From Clostridia bacterium (GTDB lineage Bacteria > Bacillota > Clostridia > DUPQ01): 64,000 bases of DNA. Where the stretch lies: assembly GCA_041678685.1 (NCBI GenBank), contig JBAYNV010000003.1, positions 24 to 64,023 on the forward strand. Direction: 5' to 3'. Each line of letters begins with the position of its first letter. Positions within the stretch are counted from its first letter, which is position 1. The translations under genes were made by a program, and so were the position numbers. The notes below the pieces were generated by a model. That model was not told where the DNA came from. It was given only the letters and a program-made list of their open reading frames with translations, and ran no database searches. Below are positions 16,294 through 64,000 of the stretch, piece after piece.

Positions 16294-17196
16294 TTATATC
16301 CCGTACAGGTCCAATGCATTCAATTCATTGCTGACATTGTGTTTGGTGAGATTTGATTTCGCATAATGGAACACCTCAGCTATGACCGGATCGACCCATC
16401 CTTTGGCAAACAGTCTTTTTGCAAAACTCACGGCAAGATCATCGATATCGCCTTTATCAACGCACAGTTCAATATAATTCCAGAGAACATCGTTTGTCAG
16501 TTCCACTCCGTTCATCCTCTGGACCTCTATCTTGTCTCTTGCTTCAGCCAGATCGCTATTACACAGTGATGTAAAAAGAAGCAGGTTGATATAGTCGCGG
16601 TCAACAAACCTCGGTATCTTTGTAAACAGTGAGGCTATGGATGTGTCTTCCATCAGGGTCTTGTCGGTAACAGAAAGCTTTTCCAGTAGTTTCCAGCGGA
16701 ATTCATTATCCAGTGCTTTGTATTCCAGACACTGTTTAAGCATTTCCTCAGAATTATATGGACGTTTCCCAAGCACTGCATACCAATAGGAAAGCAGGAT
16801 CTGAGCAAGAAGATTCTTTTTATTGCCCAGATATATCTCGTTTGTCTTTTTCATTTTACCTGCCATTTTGAAGCCGGAAACATACCCTCTTACATACTTC
16901 TTGAGAAGGCTTGTCTCCCTCATAAGATGACCGGTAATCATCTCAACGAACATGTCCCTGTTGGTATCCGATCCGGTAAGGTATTCCTTATACTTTTCGT
17001 ATGCCTTCAACGCAGCCGGATATTTGGTCGAACAGGCATAAGAGGTTATAAGACCCATCGCTGATTTCTGCGGTTCGATGCCATGCTCCAGCAGGTATTT
17101 GAAACCTTTCTCAGCTTCGATATAGTCACCATCTCTAAGACATATGCCTGAGTATGAATAATATAACTTCAGATCTTTGAATTCGTTCTTTGCCAT
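16294..17196 (-). CDS. Soluble TPR-like helical protein, third gene of MotAB-like cassette (300 aa)
   Basis: No TM helices. TPR-like helical repeats (YIEAEKGFKYLLEHG..., AALKAYEKYKEY). Its ATG at 17196 lies 4 nt after an AGGAG that overlaps the MotB-like stop TAG, so the two are translationally coupled. Confidence 0.6.
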   Translation of the reverse strand: MAKNEFKDLKLYYSYSGICLRDGDYIEAEKGFKYLLEHGIEPQKSAMGLITSYACSTKYPAALKAYEKYKEYLTGSDTNRDMFVEMITGHLMRETSLLKKYVRGYVSGFKMAGKMKKTNEIYLGNKKNLLAQILLSYWYAVLGKRPYNSEEMLKQCLEYKALDNEFRWKLLEKLSVTDKTLMEDTSIASLFTKIPRFVDRDYINLLLFTSLCNSDLAEARDKIEVQRMNGVELTNDVLWNYIELCVDKGDIDDLAVSFAKRLFAKGWVDPVIAEVFHYAKSNLTKHNVSNELNALDLYGI

Positions 17197-17203
17197 GATG
17201 CTC

Positions 17204-18214
17204 CTATTCAGCCTTATCAAGATAATCCTGTATGATCTGCCCTGCATTGTCATCCTTCAATATTATAGAGAATTCTATACGTCTGTTCTGAGAAAGGATA
17301 ATTGATATCGGTCGTGATTCAGAATAGGCCATTGCTCCGAAATACTTCTGGTATTTGGTCTCAAGATCAGGATTGCTTTTCATAAGATATGCAAGAACCG
17401 CTTCTGCTCTATTTGATGAGTACATAAGATTTTCATAATAATCTCCATCTGCACTTGCATGACCTTCAACTACTATTGATTCTATATATGATCCCGATTC
17501 ATCGATAATATCTTCAAATGCTGCAGCAAGTTTATCCAGAAGAGCATATGCGCTTGGATTGATTACCCAACTTTTTGTTTCAAATAAAACCGCTTCGTTT
17601 ATCTGCAAATTGGCGTCATCAGTAATAGAGACCTTGCCCGGACCTAAGGCTTTATCTATAGCTGCCTTTACGGTTTCGAATATGGTCGCCTGTAATACGG
17701 CAACTGTCTGCAGCTGATCTCTCATGGATTCAAGTTCAATAGTGTTTAAAGCTATCAGTCCCAGAAGTTCTGATTTCTGAGCTTCCAGTTCAGCCTGTTG
17801 CTGTCCCAATATTATGATCAGGTTCTCAAGATTTGTCGCTTCCGCTTCAGACATATTCAATGCCTCCTGTTTGGCTTCCAGCTCTGTTTCAAGGTTTATA
17901 AGCTCGATCCCTTTGGCCTCAAGCGAGTTTTCCAGCATTATAAGTATCGAACGCTGTTCTTCAAGCTCCTGTTCAGTTTCAAGAAGAGCAAGCTCCTTGG
18001 CTGCAAGATCGTTCCTCGTGGTTTCCAGCTGAGTTCCCGTTGCAATATTAGTCGCTTCCTGCTCATCCAGGTTGATCGATATTATTATGTTTTTTATGAA
18101 AACGATCAAAACAAGAAACAGCATTATGAGCACCATTGTGGACATTACATCCGCAAAAGATGGCCAGTAATTTTCCGGTTCACTTCTTTTCATATAACTT
18201 ACTCTTTGTTTCAA
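17204..18214 (-). CDS. MotB-like protein: TM anchor with conserved Asp, long coiled coil, OmpA-like peptidoglycan-binding domain (336 aa)
   Basis: WPSFADVMSTMVLIMLFLV is a MotB/ExbD-type TM with the channel Asp. Residues 50-190 are heptad-rich (LETE.ELE.Q). The C-terminus IVVEGHASADG...NLMYSSNRAEAVLAYL is an OmpA/MotB_C signature. TTG start with an AGAGGTG RBS. Confidence 0.7.
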   Translation of the reverse strand: MKQRVSYMKRSEPENYWPSFADVMSTMVLIMLFLVLIVFIKNIIISINLDEQEATNIATGTQLETTRNDLAAKELALLETEQELEEQRSILIMLENSLEAKGIELINLETELEAKQEALNMSEAEATNLENLIIILGQQQAELEAQKSELLGLIALNTIELESMRDQLQTVAVLQATIFETVKAAIDKALGPGKVSITDDANLQINEAVLFETKSWVINPSAYALLDKLAAAFEDIIDESGSYIESIVVEGHASADGDYYENLMYSSNRAEAVLAYLMKSNPDLETKYQKYFGAMAYSESRPISIILSQNRRIEFSIILKDDNAGQIIQDYLDKAE

Positions 18215-18239
18215 ATCAATTCACCTCTTTTATCATCTG

Positions 18240-19700
18240 TCAGTCATTTTTGATTGCTTTTTCAATGTCATCAAGTTTCTTCTGTATTTTTCCTGCCGCT
18301 GATTTGTTGTAGATCATCGTCTGTTCAGGTAACGCTACTATGGTTTGTGCAAGGATCTTCTGATTGTTATTGAAAGCTTCGCTCATCTGTAATACTGTTG
18401 CAACGGATTTCTCCATTGTCGCTGAAGTCTTGGATGCAATTATCTCGCTGCTTTCTTGTAAGGCTTCTGCAAAAGCATTCTTAAGCTTTTCGCTGAGATC
18501 GCCTATTTCACCTGTTGTCGAGATGATAGCCTGTTTGAATGAATCGCTCATATCCAGTACAGTTGCTGCATTAGCATCCGAAGATACCTTCAATGCTGAT
18601 GACAGGTCACTTAGCGAGGTGACTGCTCTGTCGATCTGGCCTGTAAGAGTTGATAGCTCATCAATAGTTTCCTTATTATTTGAAGCCATCTGATTTGCAG
18701 CATCTTTGACGTCCTCTGAGAATCCGCGGATAGCATCGTAATTTTTCATTATGAGATTTGCTGAATCTGATAGCGATTCGCTCATCTGTATGAAGGAGAC
18801 ATCCATTTTACTGACATTTTCCTTAAGGTTAAGGTTGAAGTCAGACATATCCTTCATGGCTACCGCCAATGTGCTTATTGCAGAATCAAATCTCTCAACG
18901 GTATTATCGAGAGCCTGTGAGGAAACTGAAACATCCATGACCACATTGGTCAGTTTGTCGCCGAATGACTCGACAGTCTTCTTCAATGACTCTTCAATTT
19001 TGAGACCGAAATCAGTGAATGTATCTTTTAAAATACGGTTCATCATCGTGTATTCAGTTTCTTTATCCTTAGCGATGAGGACTGCGATGCTGTTATCAAG
19101 ATACTCTTCGATATCTATCATAAGCGAACGTTTTTCTTCTTCGCAGTCAAATATGATAAGGCTGAAGTTCAGGAAAACTGATCCGACCAAACCTACAAGG
19201 CTTGTTGAAAACGCAGCTCCCATTCCTTTTGCGGCTCCGGCAAGTCTGGTAAGTATCTCATTCCAGTCAAGGCTTGCAGACCCTATATCCTGAAGCAGAA
19301 CATTTACAAGTTCGCTAACAGAGATCGTAAGACCTACGAATGTACCTAAAAGGCCTAATGTGACCATGATCGACTGGCTTTTCCGTACGAAGATCTCGCC
19401 ATACGAGCACAACTTCATGTGATCGGTGAAATTCTTTTCAACTATTGCCTGAGTGTTTACATTATTATTATTTATTTCGCCAGCAACTTTATAGTCTTGA
19501 ACGATCTCGTTGAGCATATCATTCTTGAATGTGCCTGCGCGTCTGTTCTGACGGTTGTTGATCTGTCTGCTTATTTTCGCATATTGGGATCTTATCAGCA
19601 GGTTGATAACAAAAGCTGCTATGAAAACTATTACTATTGTGACTATCACCAGTTTCCCGGAAATGTCAATGGCCTTAAAAAGTGAAATTAGATTCTCCAT
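18240..19700 (-). CDS. MotA/TolQ/ExbB-family proton-channel protein with ~300-aa helical C-terminal tail (486 aa)
   Basis: Three TM helices. TM2 carries the MVTLGLLGTFVGL signature of the MotA/TolQ/ExbB family. The long S/D/A/K-rich predicted alpha-helical tail follows. The start at the second ATG is preceded by AAGGAGAA. Confidence 0.7.
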   Translation of the reverse strand: MENLISLFKAIDISGKLVIVTIVIVFIAAFVINLLIRSQYAKISRQINNRQNRRAGTFKNDMLNEIVQDYKVAGEINNNNVNTQAIVEKNFTDHMKLCSYGEIFVRKSQSIMVTLGLLGTFVGLTISVSELVNVLLQDIGSASLDWNEILTRLAGAAKGMGAAFSTSLVGLVGSVFLNFSLIIFDCEEEKRSLMIDIEEYLDNSIAVLIAKDKETEYTMMNRILKDTFTDFGLKIEESLKKTVESFGDKLTNVVMDVSVSSQALDNTVERFDSAISTLAVAMKDMSDFNLNLKENVSKMDVSFIQMSESLSDSANLIMKNYDAIRGFSEDVKDAANQMASNNKETIDELSTLTGQIDRAVTSLSDLSSALKVSSDANAATVLDMSDSFKQAIISTTGEIGDLSEKLKNAFAEALQESSEIIASKTSATMEKSVATVLQMSEAFNNNQKILAQTIVALPEQTMIYNKSAAGKIQKKLDDIEKAIKND

Positions 19701-19959
19701 AAATTCTCCTTGCATTGTAAATGCTTTAATGCTGCTATTTTATCACATAATCAAATGATTTAGTAATGTTCACACAATGTTTACATTATCAAGCCAAGTA
19801 TGCGGTGTTTATGTGAAAAAGAATAATTATTCAGATATTAAATGAATAAATACTACAATTTTCATCATTCAGCATCAGGCATTAGACGAAGGAATTAATA
19901 AAAAGTTCACATTTTAATCCCGCTGTGATATACTTTTTACGAGAGAGGGAAGTGGGTAA

Positions 19960-37995: not shown

Positions 37996-39387
37996 TTAGA
38001 CGGAGAAAGCATACAGATCCGTACTGTGCATCACGAAATGTATCCTGTATGTCTGGTCTTTCAGATCTTTCAGATCGGAACTGCCTTTCCATGATACTGT
38101 CTGCCATACTTTACCGCTTAGAAGCTTGTCGCATGATGATAGATCATATCCGGTAACAGGTACATAACTGTTTTTGTCGACTATCTCAGCTTTTACATAC
38201 GCGCCTTCCGGTATGCTCGCATTTATAGCAAGAACATCCTGACTGATATCCAGCTTGATAGTATAGAAATCGCCTTCATCATCTGAAGATAACGATGTGA
38301 ATCCGTCTTCGCGTATGACAGCTCTGCGGTAACACCCTCCGGGCTTTGTGCGGTTCTCTGGGACCGTATTATGCCCGTCTTTGCACGAATGCACATAAAA
38401 GGACCATGTGCCGTCTTCATTGTCTATTATGCCCTTTGTAGAACTGATCATCATTTCATGTGAAAACCCCGGGGTTTCATTATCTATGTATGCATCCTGG
38501 CCCATAGGCCTGTACCATATAGCTCCGTCGCGGCTTGTAAGAAAGTATATTTCAAACTTGTCACATGTCCTCTTATACATATCCATCATCATGATATGTG
38601 CATTTTCCGCTCCGGGCCACTTATGATAACCTGAAGTATAATAGTCCCAGTCAGGAGGATCAGAGGGATCATTATTGAGGATCATGACAGGATCAGGAAA
38701 ATGCGTAAAATCCTTGCTTGAAGTCCTTGATATGCTCCTTCTTGGCAGAGCATATCCTTTGATCTGTCTTGTATATATCACATATTCACCTTTTTCATCG
38801 TCATGATCCAATACATTCTGCGTATCGCCAGGATTGTTCAGCAGAGGTTCACCCATGTCATGCCAGTTGATGCCGTCAGCTGACATGGAACCGTATAAAG
38901 CACATGCTGTCGCCCATGGTTTTGATCTGTCATAATGGACCCATATAAGCTTGTATCTTTCACATTCAGGCGCATTTGTATCATAGAACACGCATGTACC
39001 ATGTATGTTTTTCAGCAGATTGTTATTATATGAACCGTAGAAAGGGAATATATTCAATACTGGTTTCACAAAATGTATCCCGTCATCAGATTCAGCATAT
39101 GCAAGATTACATTTCATGTCATCAAGTTTCATATCATCAGCTGCAGTGAATGTTTCATACCATACCTGGATCCTGCTATTGATTTTAATGAAAGTCGCAT
39201 AAGCGTTCACTCTTGAACTCTCCCATGGCTTGTCAGGCAATATAACAGGGGATGGATCTATGACAGGTCTGTGTACTTTTATGTGTATGCCTTTTGGAGA
39301 AACAACCGGAAGACCGGAGTATGGCCATACTGTTCCGTAACCAGGTTCAACATTGGACCAATCAATGAAAACATATTTACTTATCAT
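37996..39387 (-). CDS. Cytoplasmic hypothetical protein, possibly beta-propeller glycoside-hydrolase-like (463 aa)
   Basis: A long, clean ORF with no signal peptide, rich in W, Y and D, with repeated motifs suggestive of a GH32/43/130-type beta-propeller. Family not resolved from sequence alone. Confidence 0.3.
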   Translation of the reverse strand: MISKYVFIDWSNVEPGYGTVWPYSGLPVVSPKGIHIKVHRPVIDPSPVILPDKPWESSRVNAYATFIKINSRIQVWYETFTAADDMKLDDMKCNLAYAESDDGIHFVKPVLNIFPFYGSYNNNLLKNIHGTCVFYDTNAPECERYKLIWVHYDRSKPWATACALYGSMSADGINWHDMGEPLLNNPGDTQNVLDHDDEKGEYVIYTRQIKGYALPRRSISRTSSKDFTHFPDPVMILNNDPSDPPDWDYYTSGYHKWPGAENAHIMMMDMYKRTCDKFEIYFLTSRDGAIWYRPMGQDAYIDNETPGFSHEMMISSTKGIIDNEDGTWSFYVHSCKDGHNTVPENRTKPGGCYRRAVIREDGFTSLSSDDEGDFYTIKLDISQDVLAINASIPEGAYVKAEIVDKNSYVPVTGYDLSSCDKLLSGKVWQTVSWKGSSDLKDLKDQTYRIHFVMHSTDLYAFSV

Positions 39388-57427: not shown

Positions 57428-58042
57428 TTGTCAATAATGAGTAACCAGTTCATATCAGAAATACTGCAATATATTTTCCCAAATGAGAAATCCGCTAATA
57501 TAGAGAAACTGGATCTGAAATTACATATACGCAACAACCACATATATTTTATGGAACACAATGAGGAAATAGGTTCCATAATAAAATATGCAAAATATAC
57601 AAACCATCCGAATTCGTTCAGGGAAATAGGGAAAAGAATAGGCAGCCTCCTTATCAGTGAGAACACAGGATGCGATATGGTAATTCCCGTACCTATGCAT
57701 GATATAGATCAGAATAAGAGAGGATATAACCAATCACTTATACTTGCATCACAAATTGCCGTATATACCGGTTTGGAGTGTTCAGCTAAAGCATTAAGAA
57801 AAATACGGCAGACACATAAACAAGCCGGCATGAATGTGTATCAGCGAAAACGAAATGTAGCAGATGTATTTAAAGCACATGATGATATCGTAACAGGTAA
57901 AACTATATTGCTTGTTGATGATATTTATACAACAGGATCCACATTAAAGGAGTGCGAAAAAGAACTTTTGTCAAAAGGTGCTGTGAAAGTTATTTTCCTG
58001 ACGGTCACATTTAACAGAAAAAAATCTGATAATGAAAAATAA
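57428..58042 (+). CDS. ComF-family phosphoribosyltransferase-like protein (lacks N-terminal zinc finger)
   Basis: PRTase type-I PRPP motif ILLVDDIYTTGSTL and a ComFC-like core. There are no N-terminal CxxC pairs. Confidence 0.65.
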   Translation: MSIMSNQFISEILQYIFPNEKSANIEKLDLKLHIRNNHIYFMEHNEEIGSIIKYAKYTNHPNSFREIGKRIGSLLISENTGCDMVIPVPMHDIDQNKRGYNQSLILASQIAVYTGLECSAKALRKIRQTHKQAGMNVYQRKRNVADVFKAHDDIVTGKTILLVDDIYTTGSTLKECEKELLSKGAVKVIFLTVTFNRKKSDNEK

Positions 58043-58107
58043 TACAAAATGTATGTTGACATTAAATGGAAATATTATATAGTTGAAATACACAATTTGG
58101 AGGTAAT

Positions 58108-59463
58108 ATGTTTGTCAGTCAGAGATACAAGATATTAAAAGCTTTGAACGAGAAAGGAAGGGAGAAAAAATACCTTGTATTTGATGATGAGGAAAAACAG
58201 AGAAGAGTTATAAAAGAAGTTAAAAAAGATGCAGCCGGTAATATGGGTATACTGCAGAGTATCGGACATGCAGGTCTTCCAAAAGTATATGATGTTTTCT
58301 ATAACAGTGATGATACATGCATAGTGACTGAATATATCGAAGGAGAAAATCTATATGAATATATACAGAACAGAGGTGTGATGTCATGGTGGGATGCTCT
58401 TGATGTATTCATAAGGATCTCGTATATCATCAGGTATCTGCACTGTCTCAAACCTGACCGAATGATCCATGGTAGCGTACATCCTGAAAATATAATTTTT
58501 AAAGACGGAAATATATATCTGGTCGATTACGGTATAAGCGATGAAAAGAACACGGCTTATATGGCTCCTGAGCTCCTTGCAGGATTGGATACATCAAAGG
58601 AAAGTGATATATATGCCCTCGGTATGGTGCTCAACTATATGGTATATGGAAAAGATAAAAGGATGCTTTATTCCAAAGAAAATGAAAATGACCTTAACAG
58701 ACTGATAAGAAGATGTACTGCACTAAACATGAAAAACAGGATCTGCGATGTGAACATGGTCCTAAATGAAGCTGAAAGGATCAAAAAAAGACTGGAGCTC
58801 GATAAAAAAGGTGAAATCATAACAAAGGTCACAACACTGGCCGGTCCATTAGATTGCGCGTATTTACTGGCCGATTCATATTCCCGTAAATTTAGTAAAA
58901 AAGTACTTCTGATAGATACTGATATACTTCATGCTTCGTTTACTGCAGATAAGAAAAATTTGAATCCTGATCTGCAGACATTATTGGAAAAGGATGAAGT
59001 ATGTGATTCTCTGCACAGTGTTGCAGAGAATAAGGGTCTGTATATAATACCATGCGCGCTGGAAATTGAAGGATATGAGAATGTTATCTACTCAAAACTG
59101 GAAATACTGTTATCAAAACTTACTGATGATTTTCCTGTCATATTCATACACTGTACGGATTTTATATATGATTCTTTGTTCATGAACTGCATATTGATGA
59201 GTGATCATGTCCTTTTCTGCCTTGATAATGTACTGAAGGATCTAAAACTGTTCAATCAGATCGCGACATATCTGTGTAATAAACATGGAACGGATCCGGA
59301 CAGGTATAATTACTGCATTTATGAAAACAGGGATGAAAAGATACATATAAATGGCGTCGACTGCCATATTTGTGGCAGATTCATCGGTACCATCAGAAGC
59401 AGGCGTCGTTTTGCAGATAAGGATTGTGAAAAAATATTATCAGTGTTATATGGGAAGGATTGA
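58108..59463 (+). CDS. TadZ/CpaE-like protein with N-terminal Hanks-type pseudokinase domain and degenerate ParA/MinD-like domain
   Basis: Kinase subdomains are present but the catalytic residues are lost: YKILKALNEKGREKKYLV (G-loop lost), VIKEV, HGSVHPEN in place of HRDLKPEN, DYG, YMAPE, DIYALGMV. The C-terminal half aligns to the CpaE ATPase (KKVLLIDTD), but Walker A is replaced by LAGPLDCAY. Confidence 0.55.
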   Translation: MFVSQRYKILKALNEKGREKKYLVFDDEEKQRRVIKEVKKDAAGNMGILQSIGHAGLPKVYDVFYNSDDTCIVTEYIEGENLYEYIQNRGVMSWWDALDVFIRISYIIRYLHCLKPDRMIHGSVHPENIIFKDGNIYLVDYGISDEKNTAYMAPELLAGLDTSKESDIYALGMVLNYMVYGKDKRMLYSKENENDLNRLIRRCTALNMKNRICDVNMVLNEAERIKKRLELDKKGEIITKVTTLAGPLDCAYLLADSYSRKFSKKVLLIDTDILHASFTADKKNLNPDLQTLLEKDEVCDSLHSVAENKGLYIIPCALEIEGYENVIYSKLEILLSKLTDDFPVIFIHCTDFIYDSLFMNCILMSDHVLFCLDNVLKDLKLFNQIATYLCNKHGTDPDRYNYCIYENRDEKIHINGVDCHICGRFIGTIRSRRRFADKDCEKILSVLYGKD

Positions 59464-60650
59464 CTATGGCAGTACTAAAAAGATTATGTGAATATAATGA
59501 AACAAACACGAATATGAAGTATGCAAAAGGCGACTACCCTTTAGGAGAAGTCGTTATAGATATCGTCAGTGAAATACTGGAGACATCTCCCGAACTCGTT
59601 ATAGATGCATATACCGATAAAAAAAGACGTCAGATGCTTGAAAGCAGAATAATAAAAATACTGGAGAAAGAGGAATACTTTGCTATCGGCTCAAAAATGG
59701 AAATGATCAAAAAAGTATTTGATTTTATGTTTGGATATGGGCAGCTTCAGGAATATATCGATGATGAGGATATCTCTGACATAGACGGAGTCAGGTATAA
59801 CCGGTTTTCGATAAAGAAAAAAGGTATACGTTATCCCATAGAACTGGATTTTGGCAATGAAATGAATTACCTGGTTTATTGCAAACTCATAGCTCTTAGA
59901 AACGGAGGGATACTGAACGATAACGACAGTCATTGCAGGGTAGCGGATGTCGAACGTAAACTGAGAATAAACATATCTATTTACCCCAGGAATATTTCAG
60001 GATCTGCAATATGCATACGAAAACACAGAAATAACGCATATACGATAAATGACCTTGTGACGCTTGGCATGCTGGACTGTAAAAACAAGGACCTGATCAT
60101 GCAGACTGCAGAAAACCGCAAAACAATGATCATATGCGGCAAAGGCGGCAGCGGAAAAACAACATTATTACGGGCTATAATAAACAGTTTACCTGACATG
60201 GAGAGGGTATTGATCGTCGAATCAGATGCGGAACTGTATCCGAAGAAGGACTTCTGTATCGAACAAAGAGTGAAGAGAAGTAATGAAGGGGGCAATCCGA
60301 TCACACTTGATATGCTTATAAAAGATGGTCTGACAATGTCATTGGATACATACTGCATCGGAGAGATCATAGGCAGCGAGGCCATAGATTTCATAGATGC
60401 CTGCTGTTCCGGACACCGCTTTTTTACTACCATGCATGCCGATAAAGCGCAAGACTGTGCAAATCGCATCGTTGCATTGGCAAAATCCTCTGACAAGCAG
60501 AGAGATGAATCCATGCTTGCAAGAATGTTCGCAGATGGAGTCGATATGGTCATACATATGGAGGATTTCAAAGTCGATGAGATATTGAATGTGAAATATT
60601 ACGATACCACTAAAAACGAGATCATATATGAAAGGATATACAGCCAATGA
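59460..60650 (+). CDS. cpaF: CpaF/TadA-family pilus assembly ATPase
   Basis: Walker A MIICGKGGSGKTTLLRAI, Asp and His boxes of the T2SS-E/VirB11 family, and a 4-nt overlap with the upstream gene. Confidence 0.85.
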   Translation: MTMAVLKRLCEYNETNTNMKYAKGDYPLGEVVIDIVSEILETSPELVIDAYTDKKRRQMLESRIIKILEKEEYFAIGSKMEMIKKVFDFMFGYGQLQEYIDDEDISDIDGVRYNRFSIKKKGIRYPIELDFGNEMNYLVYCKLIALRNGGILNDNDSHCRVADVERKLRINISIYPRNISGSAICIRKHRNNAYTINDLVTLGMLDCKNKDLIMQTAENRKTMIICGKGGSGKTTLLRAIINSLPDMERVLIVESDAELYPKKDFCIEQRVKRSNEGGNPITLDMLIKDGLTMSLDTYCIGEIIGSEAIDFIDACCSGHRFFTTMHADKAQDCANRIVALAKSSDKQRDESMLARMFADGVDMVIHMEDFKVDEILNVKYYDTTKNEIIYERIYSQ

Positions 60651-61432
60651 CAATACTGATAATAAACTCAGTAACAGCTGTTTTGCTTGCTTATCTTATA
60701 ACCAAAAGCGATCAACCTGATACTGTATATGATAAATTAAAATATCTCACCGGTTTCATATCGGTAACATTGCTTTTATTTACAGCAGTAATAGTGAACA
60801 GAAAAATAGACTACATACTGACATCCGTTTCGGTTGCGCTTATGCCTGCTGTATTGCCATATGTCGTACATGATGTATATAAAAATGTTATGTATGCAAG
60901 GGAACAGAAAAGCATCGTAGACCTGCTGCTTCTCATGAGCAAGTGGAGCGCAGTAAAGAATGATGTGGTTTTCTGCCTTAACAAAGCTGACAGATCTGAT
61001 CTTAAACAACCTGTAAAGAGGCTTATAAATGATGCATGCAACAGGATAGGAAGAGGTATGGGAGTAAGCGATGCTTTATCTATTTTCGAAAAAGAAGCAC
61101 AAAGTGAGGAACTGAGATATGTAATGATGAACATACGGTATGCATATGAAAAAGGAGGCGATCTTTACAGTATATTTAAGAGCATGGAAAATCAGTTTTT
61201 CAAACTGGATGAAGAAATATATAAAAGGAAGATCTCCACTTCAAAAGACAGATATGCGGTATATGCGACTATTCTGCTTGTCCTTATCACATTTTACTAC
61301 TTCGTGTTTAAGAATGAATCAGTCAAAGCTTTCTATCTGTCTACTGATAGCGGTAAGCTATATCTTGCACTGTTCGCATTTCTGTTCTTTATTGGAACCA
61401 TAACAACCATAAGCGCTGTGAAGCAGAATTAG
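60647..61432 (+). CDS. tadB: TadB-like (T2SS-F domain) inner-membrane platform protein
   Basis: N- and C-terminal TM segments flank a T2SSF-like cytoplasmic domain. It sits immediately after cpaF. Confidence 0.6.
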   Translation: MTILIINSVTAVLLAYLITKSDQPDTVYDKLKYLTGFISVTLLLFTAVIVNRKIDYILTSVSVALMPAVLPYVVHDVYKNVMYAREQKSIVDLLLLMSKWSAVKNDVVFCLNKADRSDLKQPVKRLINDACNRIGRGMGVSDALSIFEKEAQSEELRYVMMNIRYAYEKGGDLYSIFKSMENQFFKLDEEIYKRKISTSKDRYAVYATILLVLITFYYFVFKNESVKAFYLSTDSGKLYLALFAFLFFIGTITTISAVKQN

Positions 61433-61440
61433 GAGGCCTA

Positions 61441-62232
61441 ATGGAAAATGTGGTCATTATCTCACTGTACATATTGAATCTTTCAGCAGGCTTACTGTTT
61501 GCCACACATTATTCCGCAAAAAAGATCGGAACATATTTAGGTGTAAACAGAAATAAGAAGATATCGGCATTAAAAGAATTGGTAGGCAGAAAGTATGAAA
61601 AGATACTGAATATAGATAAGAGATACATCAATGACTACATCATCCTAACCGTAGTTTTCATCATTATAGGGGTTATCACCGGGATCTATGCCGGTATATT
61701 AAAAGGATCGCTTATCATATCTTCAGGCGCAGTATTTATGATAAGCAGGAAAAATATACAGGAAAATGAAATCGGGGATATATTTAAAAAAAATGCATAT
61801 AAGCTGTACAGATACCTTGTCTCTCAGATACAGGCAGGAGTAAAGCCTAAGGATGTTATAACAAATATGTATAAGGTGACTGAAGATAAGAAGCTGTATG
61901 ACATATTAGCCGAGGCATCAGGCACATATTCTATTACCCTTGATGGCAGATCATATGCTGAGTGTCTCAAAAAACATATCAAAACAACTGATTGCGAACA
62001 CTTCGCAATGATACTGGAGGAGGACCTCCTTTATACAAAGAATGACATGCTTCTGTCCAGGATGGAGGAGATGATGTTTAACAGATACTTTTCTTACCAG
62101 CAGAAGAAAACAGACCGCATAAAGCAGAGGTGTCTGGCCTCTGTATGCATATTCGTACTGATCATTATGATAATGATTTCAATACCGCTCATCGCGGACC
62201 TTGAGGAAGCGCTAAAAAATATATTTATATAA
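61441..62232 (+). CDS. tadC: TadC-like (T2SS-F domain) inner-membrane platform protein
   Basis: Topology is similar to TadB; it is the second platform paralogue. Confidence 0.55.
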   Translation: MENVVIISLYILNLSAGLLFATHYSAKKIGTYLGVNRNKKISALKELVGRKYEKILNIDKRYINDYIILTVVFIIIGVITGIYAGILKGSLIISSGAVFMISRKNIQENEIGDIFKKNAYKLYRYLVSQIQAGVKPKDVITNMYKVTEDKKLYDILAEASGTYSITLDGRSYAECLKKHIKTTDCEHFAMILEEDLLYTKNDMLLSRMEEMMFNRYFSYQQKKTDRIKQRCLASVCIFVLIIMIMISIPLIADLEEALKNIFI

Positions 62233-62244
62233 AGGAGAAAAGAA

Positions 62245-62451
62245 ATGAATGAACTGACAGGATCGGACAGAAAAAGAGGTTTCGGTATATCCGAAATAAT
62301 AGGGATAGCAGTGGTGCTTCTGATCGCCGCCATAATAGTAATCCCGGGATTAAAAAATATTTCCCTTGATATCATGACAAAATTACGTACTTGGGTCGAT
62401 GGTATACTACCACAGATATTCGATGCAAGTCCGACACCTGCATTTCAATGA
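62245..62451 (+). CDS. flp: Flp/type IVb-like prepilin (68 aa)
   Basis: Leader MNELTGSDRKRG, then FGISEIIGIAVVLLIAAIIV. There is a Gly at -1, Phe at +1 and Glu at +5 relative to the predicted prepilin-peptidase cleavage site, followed by a hydrophobic helix. Confidence 0.55.
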   Translation: MNELTGSDRKRGFGISEIIGIAVVLLIAAIIVIPGLKNISLDIMTKLRTWVDGILPQIFDASPTPAFQ

Positions 62452-62459
62452 GGTAGAGC

Positions 62460-62834
62460 ATGGCTGAAAGGATAATAGTCTCCGTTGTGGTCCTGATGTT
62501 GATACTGTGTATATTCGTATCAATAGTGGATGTTTTAGCGCTGATATCCAAAAACCTTGAATTCCGGGACATCTGCAGGACCTATATGATCATTACTGAG
62601 CAGGATTCAGGCCTTAGCGGCAGTTACAGGGAAAACCTTGAAAATGACCTTCTATCCTGTGGGTTTAGCGATATCGTCATTAATATACCGTACTCGATCA
62701 GATATGGGTCTGTATTCAGTTTCACTGTATCGGCATACTACAGCATCAATACCATCACAGACTTGTTTGTACGATCTGATGAACAGCATATCATGAGATA
62801 TGACCAGTTACTTACCGCAAGAAGGATCGGGTAG
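62460..62834 (+). CDS. TadE-like pseudopilin
   Basis: N-terminal TM IIVSVVVLMLILCIFVSIV after a short leader; 124 aa. Confidence 0.5.
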   Translation: MAERIIVSVVVLMLILCIFVSIVDVLALISKNLEFRDICRTYMIITEQDSGLSGSYRENLENDLLSCGFSDIVINIPYSIRYGSVFSFTVSAYYSINTITDLFVRSDEQHIMRYDQLLTARRIG

Positions 62835-62835
62835 A

Positions 62836-63309
62836 ATGAAAGAAGGAATGGATAATAAAAGAGGCAGCGGTGCAGCAGCGGCAGTGATAGCAGTATCTGT
62901 CGTGATATATGTGATATTGCCTTTATTCACATCAATCATACAGAAAGCGATAATATATCATGAGACTGCAAGAATAAAGGATGTTATAGAGTTTGCTGTA
63001 ATGAGTCTGGCAACATGTAATGACACGTTATCATTTTCAGAAAAGGATCTTGTTTTCTACACAGAGGAATATGATCTTACAGGTATTGTATATGATCAGG
63101 TATCAGTACAGCTGAAGGATATGGTCGATTTGAATAAAGAAGACATCAAAGCGGTCGTATGTGCGAAAGGCACGCCATGCATATGTGGATATATTTCAGT
63201 ACATCTCCTAATATATGTTGATATTGATGCGACACTGAAATTTCCCGGTATTTATCGGAATTCACATGCTTTTTCGGTCCATTTCCACATAGAACTGCCG
63301 GTCACATAA
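62836..63309 (+). CDS. TadE/TadF-like pseudopilin
   Basis: GSGAAAAVIAVSVVIYVILPLF N-terminal segment. The start at 62836 is preferred. Confidence 0.45.
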   Translation: MKEGMDNKRGSGAAAAVIAVSVVIYVILPLFTSIIQKAIIYHETARIKDVIEFAVMSLATCNDTLSFSEKDLVFYTEEYDLTGIVYDQVSVQLKDMVDLNKEDIKAVVCAKGTPCICGYISVHLLIYVDIDATLKFPGIYRNSHAFSVHFHIELPVT

Positions 63310-63322
63310 TGAAAGGAATGAA

Positions 63323-63949
63323 ATGACAAAAAGAAAGTACTTTATTTTAGCACTGGTGATAGCGGTGCTTCTGACAGCTGTCCAGATCGCGATATCAAAA
63401 TATGCGGTCAAAAGTGATGAAGGATATATTTATGTTGCAAACAGGGAAATACAAAAAGGCGATACCGTAACGGTATCGGATCTGCAGAAAATAACCGTAT
63501 ACGGTTACACCGGTGAAATTATTTTTACGGATAACATGTTTTCTTTATTGGATATAAGAAAAGGTGACGTTGTAAATACAAGTTGTTTTGACAATGCTAT
63601 GTATACGGATAAAGACAGAATGATATCTGTTACGGTTGATGCTGACAGATCAAACGGCGGGAATATAAGAGGTAATGAAACAGTAGATATATATGTGATC
63701 CCCGATATGACAGATTTTCAACCATATGAAATGAAATGGCTTGAAGAAGTACTTTCAAGTATAGATATAGCATATCTATCTGATAAAGATGTCGGATTCA
63801 TGCTTAATGATGTATGGGTGGACGATGTGATCACACAGAATGCAGGATCGTCTATAGTGAGCCTCAGAGTGGCTTCTCCGACAGATATACTGCTTTCTTT
63901 TCTTAAAAATAAATGTGATATAGAGTTCATTGTTACAGTAGAACATTGA
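63323..63949 (+). CDS. cpaB: CpaB/RcpC-like Flp pilus assembly protein (SAF domain)
   Basis: N-terminal TM, then YIYVANREIQKGDTVTVSDL as a SAF-domain signature. Confidence 0.6.
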   Translation: MTKRKYFILALVIAVLLTAVQIAISKYAVKSDEGYIYVANREIQKGDTVTVSDLQKITVYGYTGEIIFTDNMFSLLDIRKGDVVNTSCFDNAMYTDKDRMISVTVDADRSNGGNIRGNETVDIYVIPDMTDFQPYEMKWLEEVLSSIDIAYLSDKDVGFMLNDVWVDDVITQNAGSSIVSLRVASPTDILLSFLKNKCDIEFIVTVEH

Positions 63950-64000
63950 TATAGAATAATAAAAGCCTTTATGATATAATTAGTGCGTTAGTTTTATCAT

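Follow-up and report, generated by a model that had tools for sequence, protein, structure and literature searches.

A Degenerate Hanks-Kinase Domain Fused to a P-loop-less MinD/ParA-Fold Domain Heads a Tad-like Operon in a Clostridia Bacterium

Results

The Gene at the Head of the Tad-like Operon

The window analyzed here is a stretch of 64,000 nucleotides from a metagenome-assembled genome (MAG) of a Clostridia bacterium (GenBank assembly GCA_041678685.1, contig JBAYNV010000003.1, positions 24 to 64,023 of the forward strand; coordinates below are window positions), and our subject is the plus-strand gene at 58108–59463, which encodes a 451-aa protein and stands first in a Tad-like operon. 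Its ATG at 58108 is preceded, 3 nt upstream, by the ribosome-binding site GGAGG, and its TGA stop lies at 59461–59463. A consensus scan further returned a putative promoter on the plus strand at 58056–58083 (TTGACA, a 16-nt spacer, and TATAGT; 11 of 12 positions match the consensus, which is all that designates this site), within the 65-bp gap that follows comF. The protein has no predicted transmembrane segment, the maximum 19-residue Kyte–Doolittle mean being 1.3. An original prediction, made from the sequence alone, had read this open reading frame (ORF) as the first gene of a Tad locus, and our analysis bears out its extent, strand, length, and position. All the motifs quoted there were also recovered in the protein, in the order given: NEKGRE (residues 14–19), VIKEV (34–38), TEYIEGENLYEY (74–85), HGSVHPEN (121–128), DYG (140–142), YMAPE (151–155), DIYALGMV (167–174), LAGPLDCAY (244–252), and KKVLLIDTD (264–272). 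As detailed below, the gene specifies a single, conserved product that unites a degenerate Hanks-kinase domain with a MinD/ParA-fold domain devoid of a P-loop, an architecture that is covered by no Pfam or NCBIfam model.

The N-terminal half (residues 1 to ~228, 58108–58791) is assigned to the Hanks-type kinase fold by the Pfam Pkinase profile, the family alignment, and Foldseek. The Pkinase match spans residues 35–203 with an E-value of 2.2e-23 (83.5 bits against a cut-off of 31.7), kinases of the Protein Data Bank (PDB) match the domain with E-values down to 2e-11, and among NCBIfam models it is the PASTA kinase family that matches best. An AlphaFold model of the kinase half (pLDDT 69, pTM 0.70; like the model of the other half, computed from a 7-sequence alignment) retrieves Staphylococcus aureus Stk1/PknB and Mycobacterium tuberculosis PknB as top Foldseek matches (E ~1e-14), so that the kinase fold proposed in the original prediction is upheld by profile and structure alike. 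The catalytic apparatus of this fold is, by contrast, eroded, again as had been proposed. The Gly-rich loop GxGxxG is reduced to NEKGRE, with a single Gly, and is degenerate throughout the clade to which the window protein belongs. The HRDxKxxN loop reads HGSVHPEN, in which the catalytic Asp has become S123 and the catalytic-loop Lys H125, N128 being retained; in the whole clade, the HRD position is either HGS or HGN and the catalytic-loop Lys is His. The aligned αC position carries no conserved Glu. The β3 Lys, present in the window protein as K36, is Ser in P0003–P0006 of the clade, and the Asp of the DFG motif, which is kept as D140 in the window's DYG, is Asn in P0122. The activation segment is very short (DYGISDEKNTAYMAPE), with 10 residues between DYG and APE. 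Since the catalytic residues vary within the clade, they do not appear to be under selection there, and the label of pseudokinase is thus justified: the kinase half would have a Hanks fold that is incapable of catalyzing phosphotransfer.

What is kept in the window protein, namely K36, N128, the DFG-type D140, and the C-lobe motifs APE (153–155) and DIYALG, could nonetheless be taken as the mark of an atypical kinase that is still active and that turns assembly on or off by phosphorylating TadA or another part of the pilus machinery. We find this improbable: no member of the clade has retained the catalytic base, whose position holds Ser or Asn, or the catalytic-loop Lys, which is replaced by His; a lone Gly is left in the Gly-rich loop, the αC Glu is not conserved, and even the β3 Lys and the DFG Asp are lost, in P0003–P0006 and in P0122, respectively. 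A further observation in favor of this alternative, drawn from distant fusion relatives of the protein, is considered with the wider family below.

The C-terminal half (residues 228–451, 58789–59460) adopts a MinD/ParA fold according to an AlphaFold model, Foldseek, a family profile, and hhalign. Taken singly, its sequence gives weak profile matches, to AAA_31 (E 0.002) and minD_arch (E 3.5e-5), both below threshold, and single-sequence or 7-sequence profile searches against PDB and Pfam returned only subthreshold or chance-level matches; the assignment therefore required a structure model and a broader profile. The model (pLDDT 74, pTM 0.77) matches MinD, FleN, and ParA in Foldseek with E-values from 3e-8 to 1e-5 and TM-scores of 0.6–0.73, the nitrogenase Fe protein also being among the matches. 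A profile built from 32 sequences of the wider family in turn matches, in PDB, the ParA 3EA0 (E 1.9e-7), several MinDs (from E 4e-7; 4V03, E 4.4e-7), and BY-kinases (about E 1e-4). Within this fold, the deviant Walker A motif KGGxGK[ST] is absent: TLAGPLDCAY occupies the place of xKGGxGKT, the hhalign alignment with a P-loop-bearing Clostridial ATPase opens a 6-residue gap exactly over PKAGAG of its PKAGAG(KS), and the alignment of the family profile with PDB sets the family's GNpEF onto GKT(T) of the P-loop. What the domain retains is LLIDTD (266–272) in the switch-I/Walker A′ region, LYIIP, the family-specific EGYEN, and IFIHCTDFIYD, whose IFIHCTD (345–351) forms a Walker B-like strand. The original prediction had described this half as a CpaE/MinD-type ATPase with a replaced Walker A; the MinD-type fold and the loss of Walker A both stand, and the particular affinity to CpaE does not, for MinD scores as well.

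The Downstream Genes and the Rest of the Window

Downstream of the fusion gene, seven plus-strand genes complete what is a compact eight-gene Tad-like operon. The first encodes a TadA/CpaF-like secretion ATPase (59466–60650; T2SSE, E 7e-24; TIGR03819, E 2.4e-36) whose Walker A, GKGGSGKTT, is intact; translation probably starts at the ATG at 59466, 2 nt past the TGA of the fusion gene, orthologs starting with MAVLK, and its ribosome-binding site, GGAAGGA, lies within the 3′ end of the fusion gene. Two platform proteins follow, a TadB-like inner-membrane protein (60647–61432; T2SSF, E 2.1e-7) and a TadC-like one (61441–62232; T2SSF at a subthreshold E of 0.053), the position of the latter being kept in all related loci. 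The next gene (62245–62451) encodes a putative 68-aa prepilin of Flp size, which reads KRG/FGISEIIGIAVVLLIAAII and in which KRG/FGISE precedes a hydrophobic helix, a motif kept in the orthologs; if it were cleaved after the first Gly, the processed protein would start with Phe at +1 and have Glu at +5. This protein has no Flp profile match and no Tyr at +6. Two small proteins come next, one of 124 aa with an N-terminal hydrophobic segment and a subthreshold match to DUF4320 (62460–62834; E 0.059), a family that is found at the equivalent position in a Tad-like locus of Thermoanaerobacterium, and one of 157 aa without family match (62836–63309 from the ATG at 62836; the longest ORF opens at 62800), which, given its N-terminal KRGSG-hydrophobic segment, may be a minor pilin. 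The last gene (63323–63949) encodes a 208-aa CpaB/RcpC-like protein with a SAF-type region (RcpC, E 0.003; TIGR03177 cpaB, E 6.9e-5; both subthreshold). Relatives show a weak SAF match at this CpaB-like position, where an SAF-domain protein is annotated in L020, and on their longer contigs the locus ends after this gene and gives way to housekeeping genes (mtnN-like, ahcY, and alaS). The locus contains no secretin, as expected for a monoderm.

Some features of the surrounding DNA deserve mention for their own sake. The part of the window that holds the Tad-like locus (58001–64000) has a G + C content of 0.357–0.383 against ~0.39–0.42 in most of the window, and the locus is nonetheless syntenic among relatives of only 40% identity. 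Elsewhere, a 463-aa minus-strand ORF at 37996–39387, which has no Pfam match at an E-value of 1e-5, sits amid housekeeping genes (dxs, an FtsJ-type methyltransferase, and a HAD hydrolase), and a three-gene minus-strand block at 16294–19715, where the GC skew inverts, breaks the otherwise plus-strand orientation of the genes; it comprises an OmpA-family protein between two proteins without Pfam match on record.

Conservation of the Fusion

The original prediction had suggested looking for the same fusion at the head of Tad loci in related Clostridia, and it is indeed found there: full-length relatives at 33–41% identity occur in other MAGs of Clostridia/Bacillota and share the gene order dnaB, tilS, hpt, ftsH, metK, comF, fusion, tadA and onward. 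One ortholog, P0004, is alone present on at least 24 contigs, and a protein identical to that of the window is encoded on a contig of another metagenome assembly (ERZ27247350). Invariant residues are distributed over both halves in the family alignment, and the kinase half, at 43–45% identity against 36–38% for the C-terminal half, is at least as conserved as its partner.

These data bear on the suspicion that the gene is a decaying relic, or that an assembly error or a frameshift has united two unrelated genes, a suspicion that both destroyed enzymatic sites and the metagenomic origin of the genome might nourish. We give it next to no credence. The ORF is uninterrupted, the architecture recurs in different MAGs and in ~40 distant clusters of proteins, and both halves bear invariant motifs, so that artifact and pseudogene decay are ruled out by the conservation of the fused architecture across independent contigs.

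A Wider Family of Loop-less Proteins

The window gene also belongs to a larger family, of which it appears to be a degenerate branch. An exhaustive search with the C-terminal domain profile yielded 170 cluster representatives at an E-value of at most 1e-3, and architectures and motifs were counted over the best 150 of these clusters plus the close family (~153 proteins). A Walker A pattern occurs in only 2 of these ~153 proteins, and a single one of the two matches (P0266) is located at the start of the domain. The family is recognizable by the signature [VI]WGNxEF, DxDLLxPSxD, NYEYY, and FIYDA[FY]T. The N-terminal part is more diverse, consisting of a kinase domain in 39 proteins, an unassigned domain of 130–180 aa in 43, next to nothing in the 34 that are essentially stand-alone, and other extensions in the rest. 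No Pfam or NCBIfam model represents the loop-less family, its members being labeled in their sources as “protein kinase,” “PrkC,” or “hypothetical protein”; a further search with the family profile returned only 11 proteins, none with an informative name, and a look-up of the clusters was likewise nameless. Nonkinase members (P0144, P0149, P0167, P0172, and ~40 other clusters) share over residues 1 to ~150 an N-terminal domain with the pattern SQP...W...G[IV]R, for which no match was found by profile in PDB, or in Pfam or NCBIfam.

H/Y-x-D-[ILM]-K-P-x-N and DFG are conserved in nearly all of the distant members among the 40 kinase fusions; in several of them, a Gly-rich loop of the GxGGxS type is conserved as well, and their Pkinase scores can be strong (163 bits for P0190 and 148 bits for P0161). 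In a quick neighbor-joining tree computed without bootstrap, the HG[SN] proteins form one clade, whose sister is an HGD-IKPEN clade and which is nested within fusions of the YRD and HLD types, a topology that fits a single loss of the catalytic residues as the derived state of the window's clade. The complete catalytic motifs of most distant fusions, whose kinases are thus apparently intact, are the second observation that favors an active kinase half; they suggest that phosphorylation was probably the ancestral mode of action.

Genomic Context across the Family

In every context examined (8 of 8), the family member lies directly 5′ of a TadA-like gene, with the same layout. This holds for the pseudokinase type (the window and L001–L008), for the HGD-type kinase (L004 and L009), for kinases with all catalytic motifs (L012 and L019), and for nonkinase members (L013, L014, L018, and L020). 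For instance, the loci of P0190 and P0174, which have all the kinase motifs, comprise the fusion, a T2SSE gene, two platform genes, a small pilin, two small genes, and an SAF-type gene; that of the nonkinase P0274/P0144 has the same order and gene sizes, Pfam matching its T2SSE gene only; and the nonkinase P0149 and P0167 are followed by TadA-like genes, that of P0167 being 39% identical to the window TadA (E 2e-73). The stand-alone WP_212699016.1 of Vallitalea pronyensis, encoded on pVpro and assigned to the family by hhalign (100%, E 1e-39), is likewise directly 5′ of a TadA that is 38.6% identical to the window's.

Various neighbors of these loci were recorded along the way. In L004 (14789–16813, the contig of P0007), the Tad-like locus stops after a 60-aa gene and is followed on the other strand by a phage-type integrase and an HTH regulator; an integrated element seems to have taken the place of the last two genes of the locus, which the related L009 has. 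An HD-domain phosphohydrolase is encoded within or right after the pilus genes in both plasmid-borne Clostridial loci (L020, 13358–13897; L021, 9717–10301), and in L018, two HDOD/HD proteins are encoded before the locus and a response-regulator protein of 504 aa after it. Upstream in L020 are also found a protein with a subthreshold T4SS-pilin-like N-terminus and an M23 peptidase.

DNA-handling genes, finally, repeatedly flank these Tad-like loci. In the window's clade, comF lies upstream (57428–58042, plus strand, in the window, where ComF lacks the N-terminal Cys motif that is present in the ComF of L009); the HGD clade is flanked by a pilin-like N_methyl protein (L004), RecD2, and comF (L004, 6473–9855; L009, 912–3707); a PC4-like ssDNA-binding protein is encoded 3′ of the P0190 and P0174 loci (L012, 14914–15150; L019, 7843–8094); and the nonkinase members of L013 and L018 have dnaX-ybaB-recR upstream, a stand-alone member being adjacent to SSB (L015, 846–1232). 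These neighbors could hint at a role in DNA uptake, or be there by chance.

Discussion

Proposed Role at the Pilus Motor

On this basis, the fusion protein may best be viewed as a cytoplasmic accessory factor in a Tad-like pilus machine of the compact, monoderm type, where it would act as a nucleotide-independent scaffold for the motor, a reading to which we assign a probability of about 0.6. Its gene takes up the slot directly 5′ of that for the motor ATPase, which in canonical tad loci belongs to TadZ/CpaE. A scaffold is the simplest reading for a protein that has lost both nucleotide sites yet conserves both domains, and whose gene is closely linked to that of an intact motor ATPase; the promoter-like site upstream and the location of the TadA ribosome-binding site in the 3′ end of the fusion gene support the operon logic on which it relies. 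Mechanistically, both halves would be enzyme folds that no longer act as enzymes, having presumably lost the binding of nucleotides. The loop-less MinD-like domain would dock on the TadA hexamer, on the TadB/C platform, or on both, and the pseudokinase domain would offer a surface for protein–protein contacts by which the machine is recruited, positioned, or gated, and may itself be a substrate or a partner of the real Ser/Thr kinases of the cell. The ancestor of the protein was probably a fusion of an apparently active Hanks kinase with the same loop-less domain, tethered to the motor, catalysis having been lost once while the structural role was kept.

Several known systems offer precedents for such a scaffold. 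EssB/YukC of the type VIIb secretion system (T7SSb; PMC11217815) uses a catalytically inert kinase fold as a structural/interaction module of a Gram-positive envelope machine; it differs from the fusion protein in being a membrane protein with an extracellular domain, in having no MinD-like domain, and in belonging to another machine, and there is no detectable sequence relationship between the two. EcpK, a BY pseudokinase with a MinD/ParA-related fold whose catalytic residues are lost, was proposed by its authors to be a phosphorylation-independent scaffold for an envelope machine (PMC12004946), but its partner is a polysaccharide co-polymerase and not a pilus motor, and it is not fused to a Hanks kinase. 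The TadZA protein of Bdellovibrio is a TadZ–TadA fusion without receiver domain (bioRxiv 10.64898/2026.07.08.737194), which indicates that the N-terminal module of TadZ can be dispensable or exchangeable and that the MinD-like part can be physically united with TadA; there, the partner is TadA and the Walker-A-like motif is kept, whereas the present fusion pairs its P-loop-less domain with a pseudokinase and leaves TadA to a gene of its own. As for the individual domains, the N-terminal half finds its best matches, by structure and by profile, among PASTA-type Hanks kinases (PknB, Stk1, and PrkC), one ortholog being even named PrkC, but the fusion has neither transmembrane segment nor PASTA repeats, and has lost their catalytic Asp, catalytic-loop Lys, and Gly-rich loop, with a very short activation segment. 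The C-terminal half shares with MinD/ParA (SIMIBI) ATPases the fold, the hhhDxD region, and the Walker-B-like strand, without the deviant Walker A. The locus as a whole resembles the Tad/Flp (type IVc) system through its TadA-type ATPase and two TadB/TadC platform genes.

The relation to TadZ itself calls for caution. TadZ is a cytoplasmic hub for the assembly and localization of the pilus (PMC11407121; PMC6668835), and its canonical form combines an atypical receiver domain with a Walker-A-like motif (bioRxiv 10.64898/2026.07.08.737194; PMC6668835) of consensus K/RGGXGXS/T (bioRxiv 10.64898/2026.07.08.737194). The fusion resembles TadZ/CpaE in its ParA/MinD-fold domain and in the position of its gene directly 5′ of TadA/CpaF in a tad-type operon; it differs in that a Hanks-kinase fold takes the place of the atypical receiver domain, in that the Walker-A-like motif is absent, and in that its sequence is no closer to TadZ than to MinD. 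With hhalign, the family profile scores 97.6% (E 4e-12) against the P-loop ATPase that occupies the TadZ slot in a Clostridial locus (Thermoanaerobacterium pMU3262). Among the matches listed from the profile and Foldseek searches of the C-terminal domain, no PDB TadZ is found. Two distant tblastn matches that might have connected the domain to TadZ were rejected, one (L010) being a Wzz/BY-kinase co-polymerase and the other (L011) an archaeal MinD. As the sequence carries no signal specific to TadZ, gene position is what an equivalence to TadZ has to be based on. Of the original claim that TadZ is here replaced, we therefore retain the occupation of its slot, and we file the fusion not in the TadZ family but as a P-loop-less protein of the MinD/ParA superfamily that occupies the TadZ position. 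In the literature that we searched, no protein in this position is described as fused to a kinase or pseudokinase, just as the original prediction did not recognize the architecture as described, and such a fusion goes unmentioned in an earlier survey of Gram-positive tad loci (PMC3244431).

A number of observations weigh against the scaffold as we propose it. The binding of the fusion to TadA or to the platform is something that we only infer, and the phospho-signaling scaffold suggested in the original prediction is likewise a hypothesis. The C-terminal domain carries no sequence signal specific to TadZ, the family profile matching an archaeal MinD (97.2%, E 3e-11) as well as it does the Clostridial ATPase of the TadZ slot, and better than it does an annotated proteobacterial TadZ/CpaE (84.6%, E 7e-6), in hhalign. 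On pVpro (L020, 1319–13117), the gene before that of the family member encodes a protein of 427 aa that combines a weak receiver-like domain with a degenerate NTPase-like region; this protein, and not the neighboring family member, may be the true TadZ equivalent, and the family therefore need not be orthologous to TadZ. K36, N128, and D140 could still allow the kinase half of the window protein to bind ATP, both AlphaFold models are only of moderate confidence (pLDDT 69 and 74), and all the close relatives belong to uncultured organisms. Finally, a prepilin peptidase (TadV) was found neither in the locus, nor among the called genes at 3.5–20 kb, nor, at 20–48 kb, among ORFs of 200 aa or more. 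Searches for signaling genes were similarly negative: the family kinase profile retrieved no cognate kinase from all six-frame ORFs of at least 80 aa in the window, and Pfam found no PP2C phosphatase or FHA protein among the calls at 3.5–20 kb and the ORFs of at least 200 aa at 20–48 kb. As the search for signaling genes and for the peptidase covers only 64 kb of the genome, these absences say little.

Some of these observations can also be read in favor of a regulator or adaptor that is no equivalent of TadZ. According to this alternative, the loop-less domain would be a separate offshoot of MinD or BY-kinases, comparable to FleN-type anti-activators or to BY pseudokinases, and would modulate the machine or tie it to a process such as DNA uptake, the TadZ function being absent or supplied from elsewhere in the genome. 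It would account for the missing TadZ-specific profile signal and for the company of a receiver-like and degenerate NTPase protein on pVpro; moreover, the nearest single-sequence matches of the domain include BY-kinase models and a Wzz/BY-kinase protein, and the family motif DxDLLxPS resembles the Walker A′ region of BY-kinases. That A′-like motif is, however, the only one of the Walker A, A′, and B motifs of BY-kinases that the fusion has; it also has no C-terminal Tyr cluster, and no polysaccharide co-polymerase gene accompanies it in the locus. The gene is, furthermore, always immediately 5′ of TadA and tightly coupled to it, which is the canonical position of TadZ, and no other MinD-like gene was found in the window or in the eight-gene loci of the relatives. 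We therefore hold a regulator of this kind to be possible, if rather unlikely, and keep the motor scaffold as the preferred reading.

Beyond the scaffold, one may tentatively picture a distinct class of Tad-like machines in uncultured Bacillota, in which a P-loop-less MinD-like scaffold would be wired to a Hanks kinase and phosphorylation would switch assembly at the motor, the pseudokinase of the window having become an allosteric receiver or a docking site for a kinase of the PrkC type. As these loci recur beside comF, recD2 with a pilin-like gene, the PC4-like ssDNA-binding protein, SSB, and recR, the pilus may in that event serve DNA uptake and not adhesion. Such a picture is speculative, and we deem it unlikely in its entirety.

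Implications

Tad pili are involved in adhesion, biofilm formation, and predation, and in DNA uptake in some Gram-positives. To our knowledge, the placement and switching of their assembly are understood in only a few proteobacteria, through TadZ/CpaE. The present analysis shows that many uncultured Clostridia fill the TadZ slot in another way, with a MinD-like domain without P-loop, which has presumably lost ATP binding and is often fused to a kinase, the kinase being dead in one lineage. If Tad accessory factors are known as a kind, a sizeable family of them that is loop-less, often fused to kinases or pseudokinases, and unannotated appears to be new. Its members currently go under the names of “protein kinase” or “hypothetical protein” only, and pilus-detection models that require TadZ likely miss or misclassify their loci. 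From an evolutionary perspective, the family seems to offer, on one and the same scaffold, a natural gradation that leads from active kinases through non-RD kinases to pseudokinases and that may be useful for understanding what pseudokinases retain. The pVpro plasmid of V. pronyensis, a cultured member of the Clostridia, is a possible experimental entry point to the family, which would provide a direct and testable link between Hanks-type signaling and the assembly of type IV filaments.

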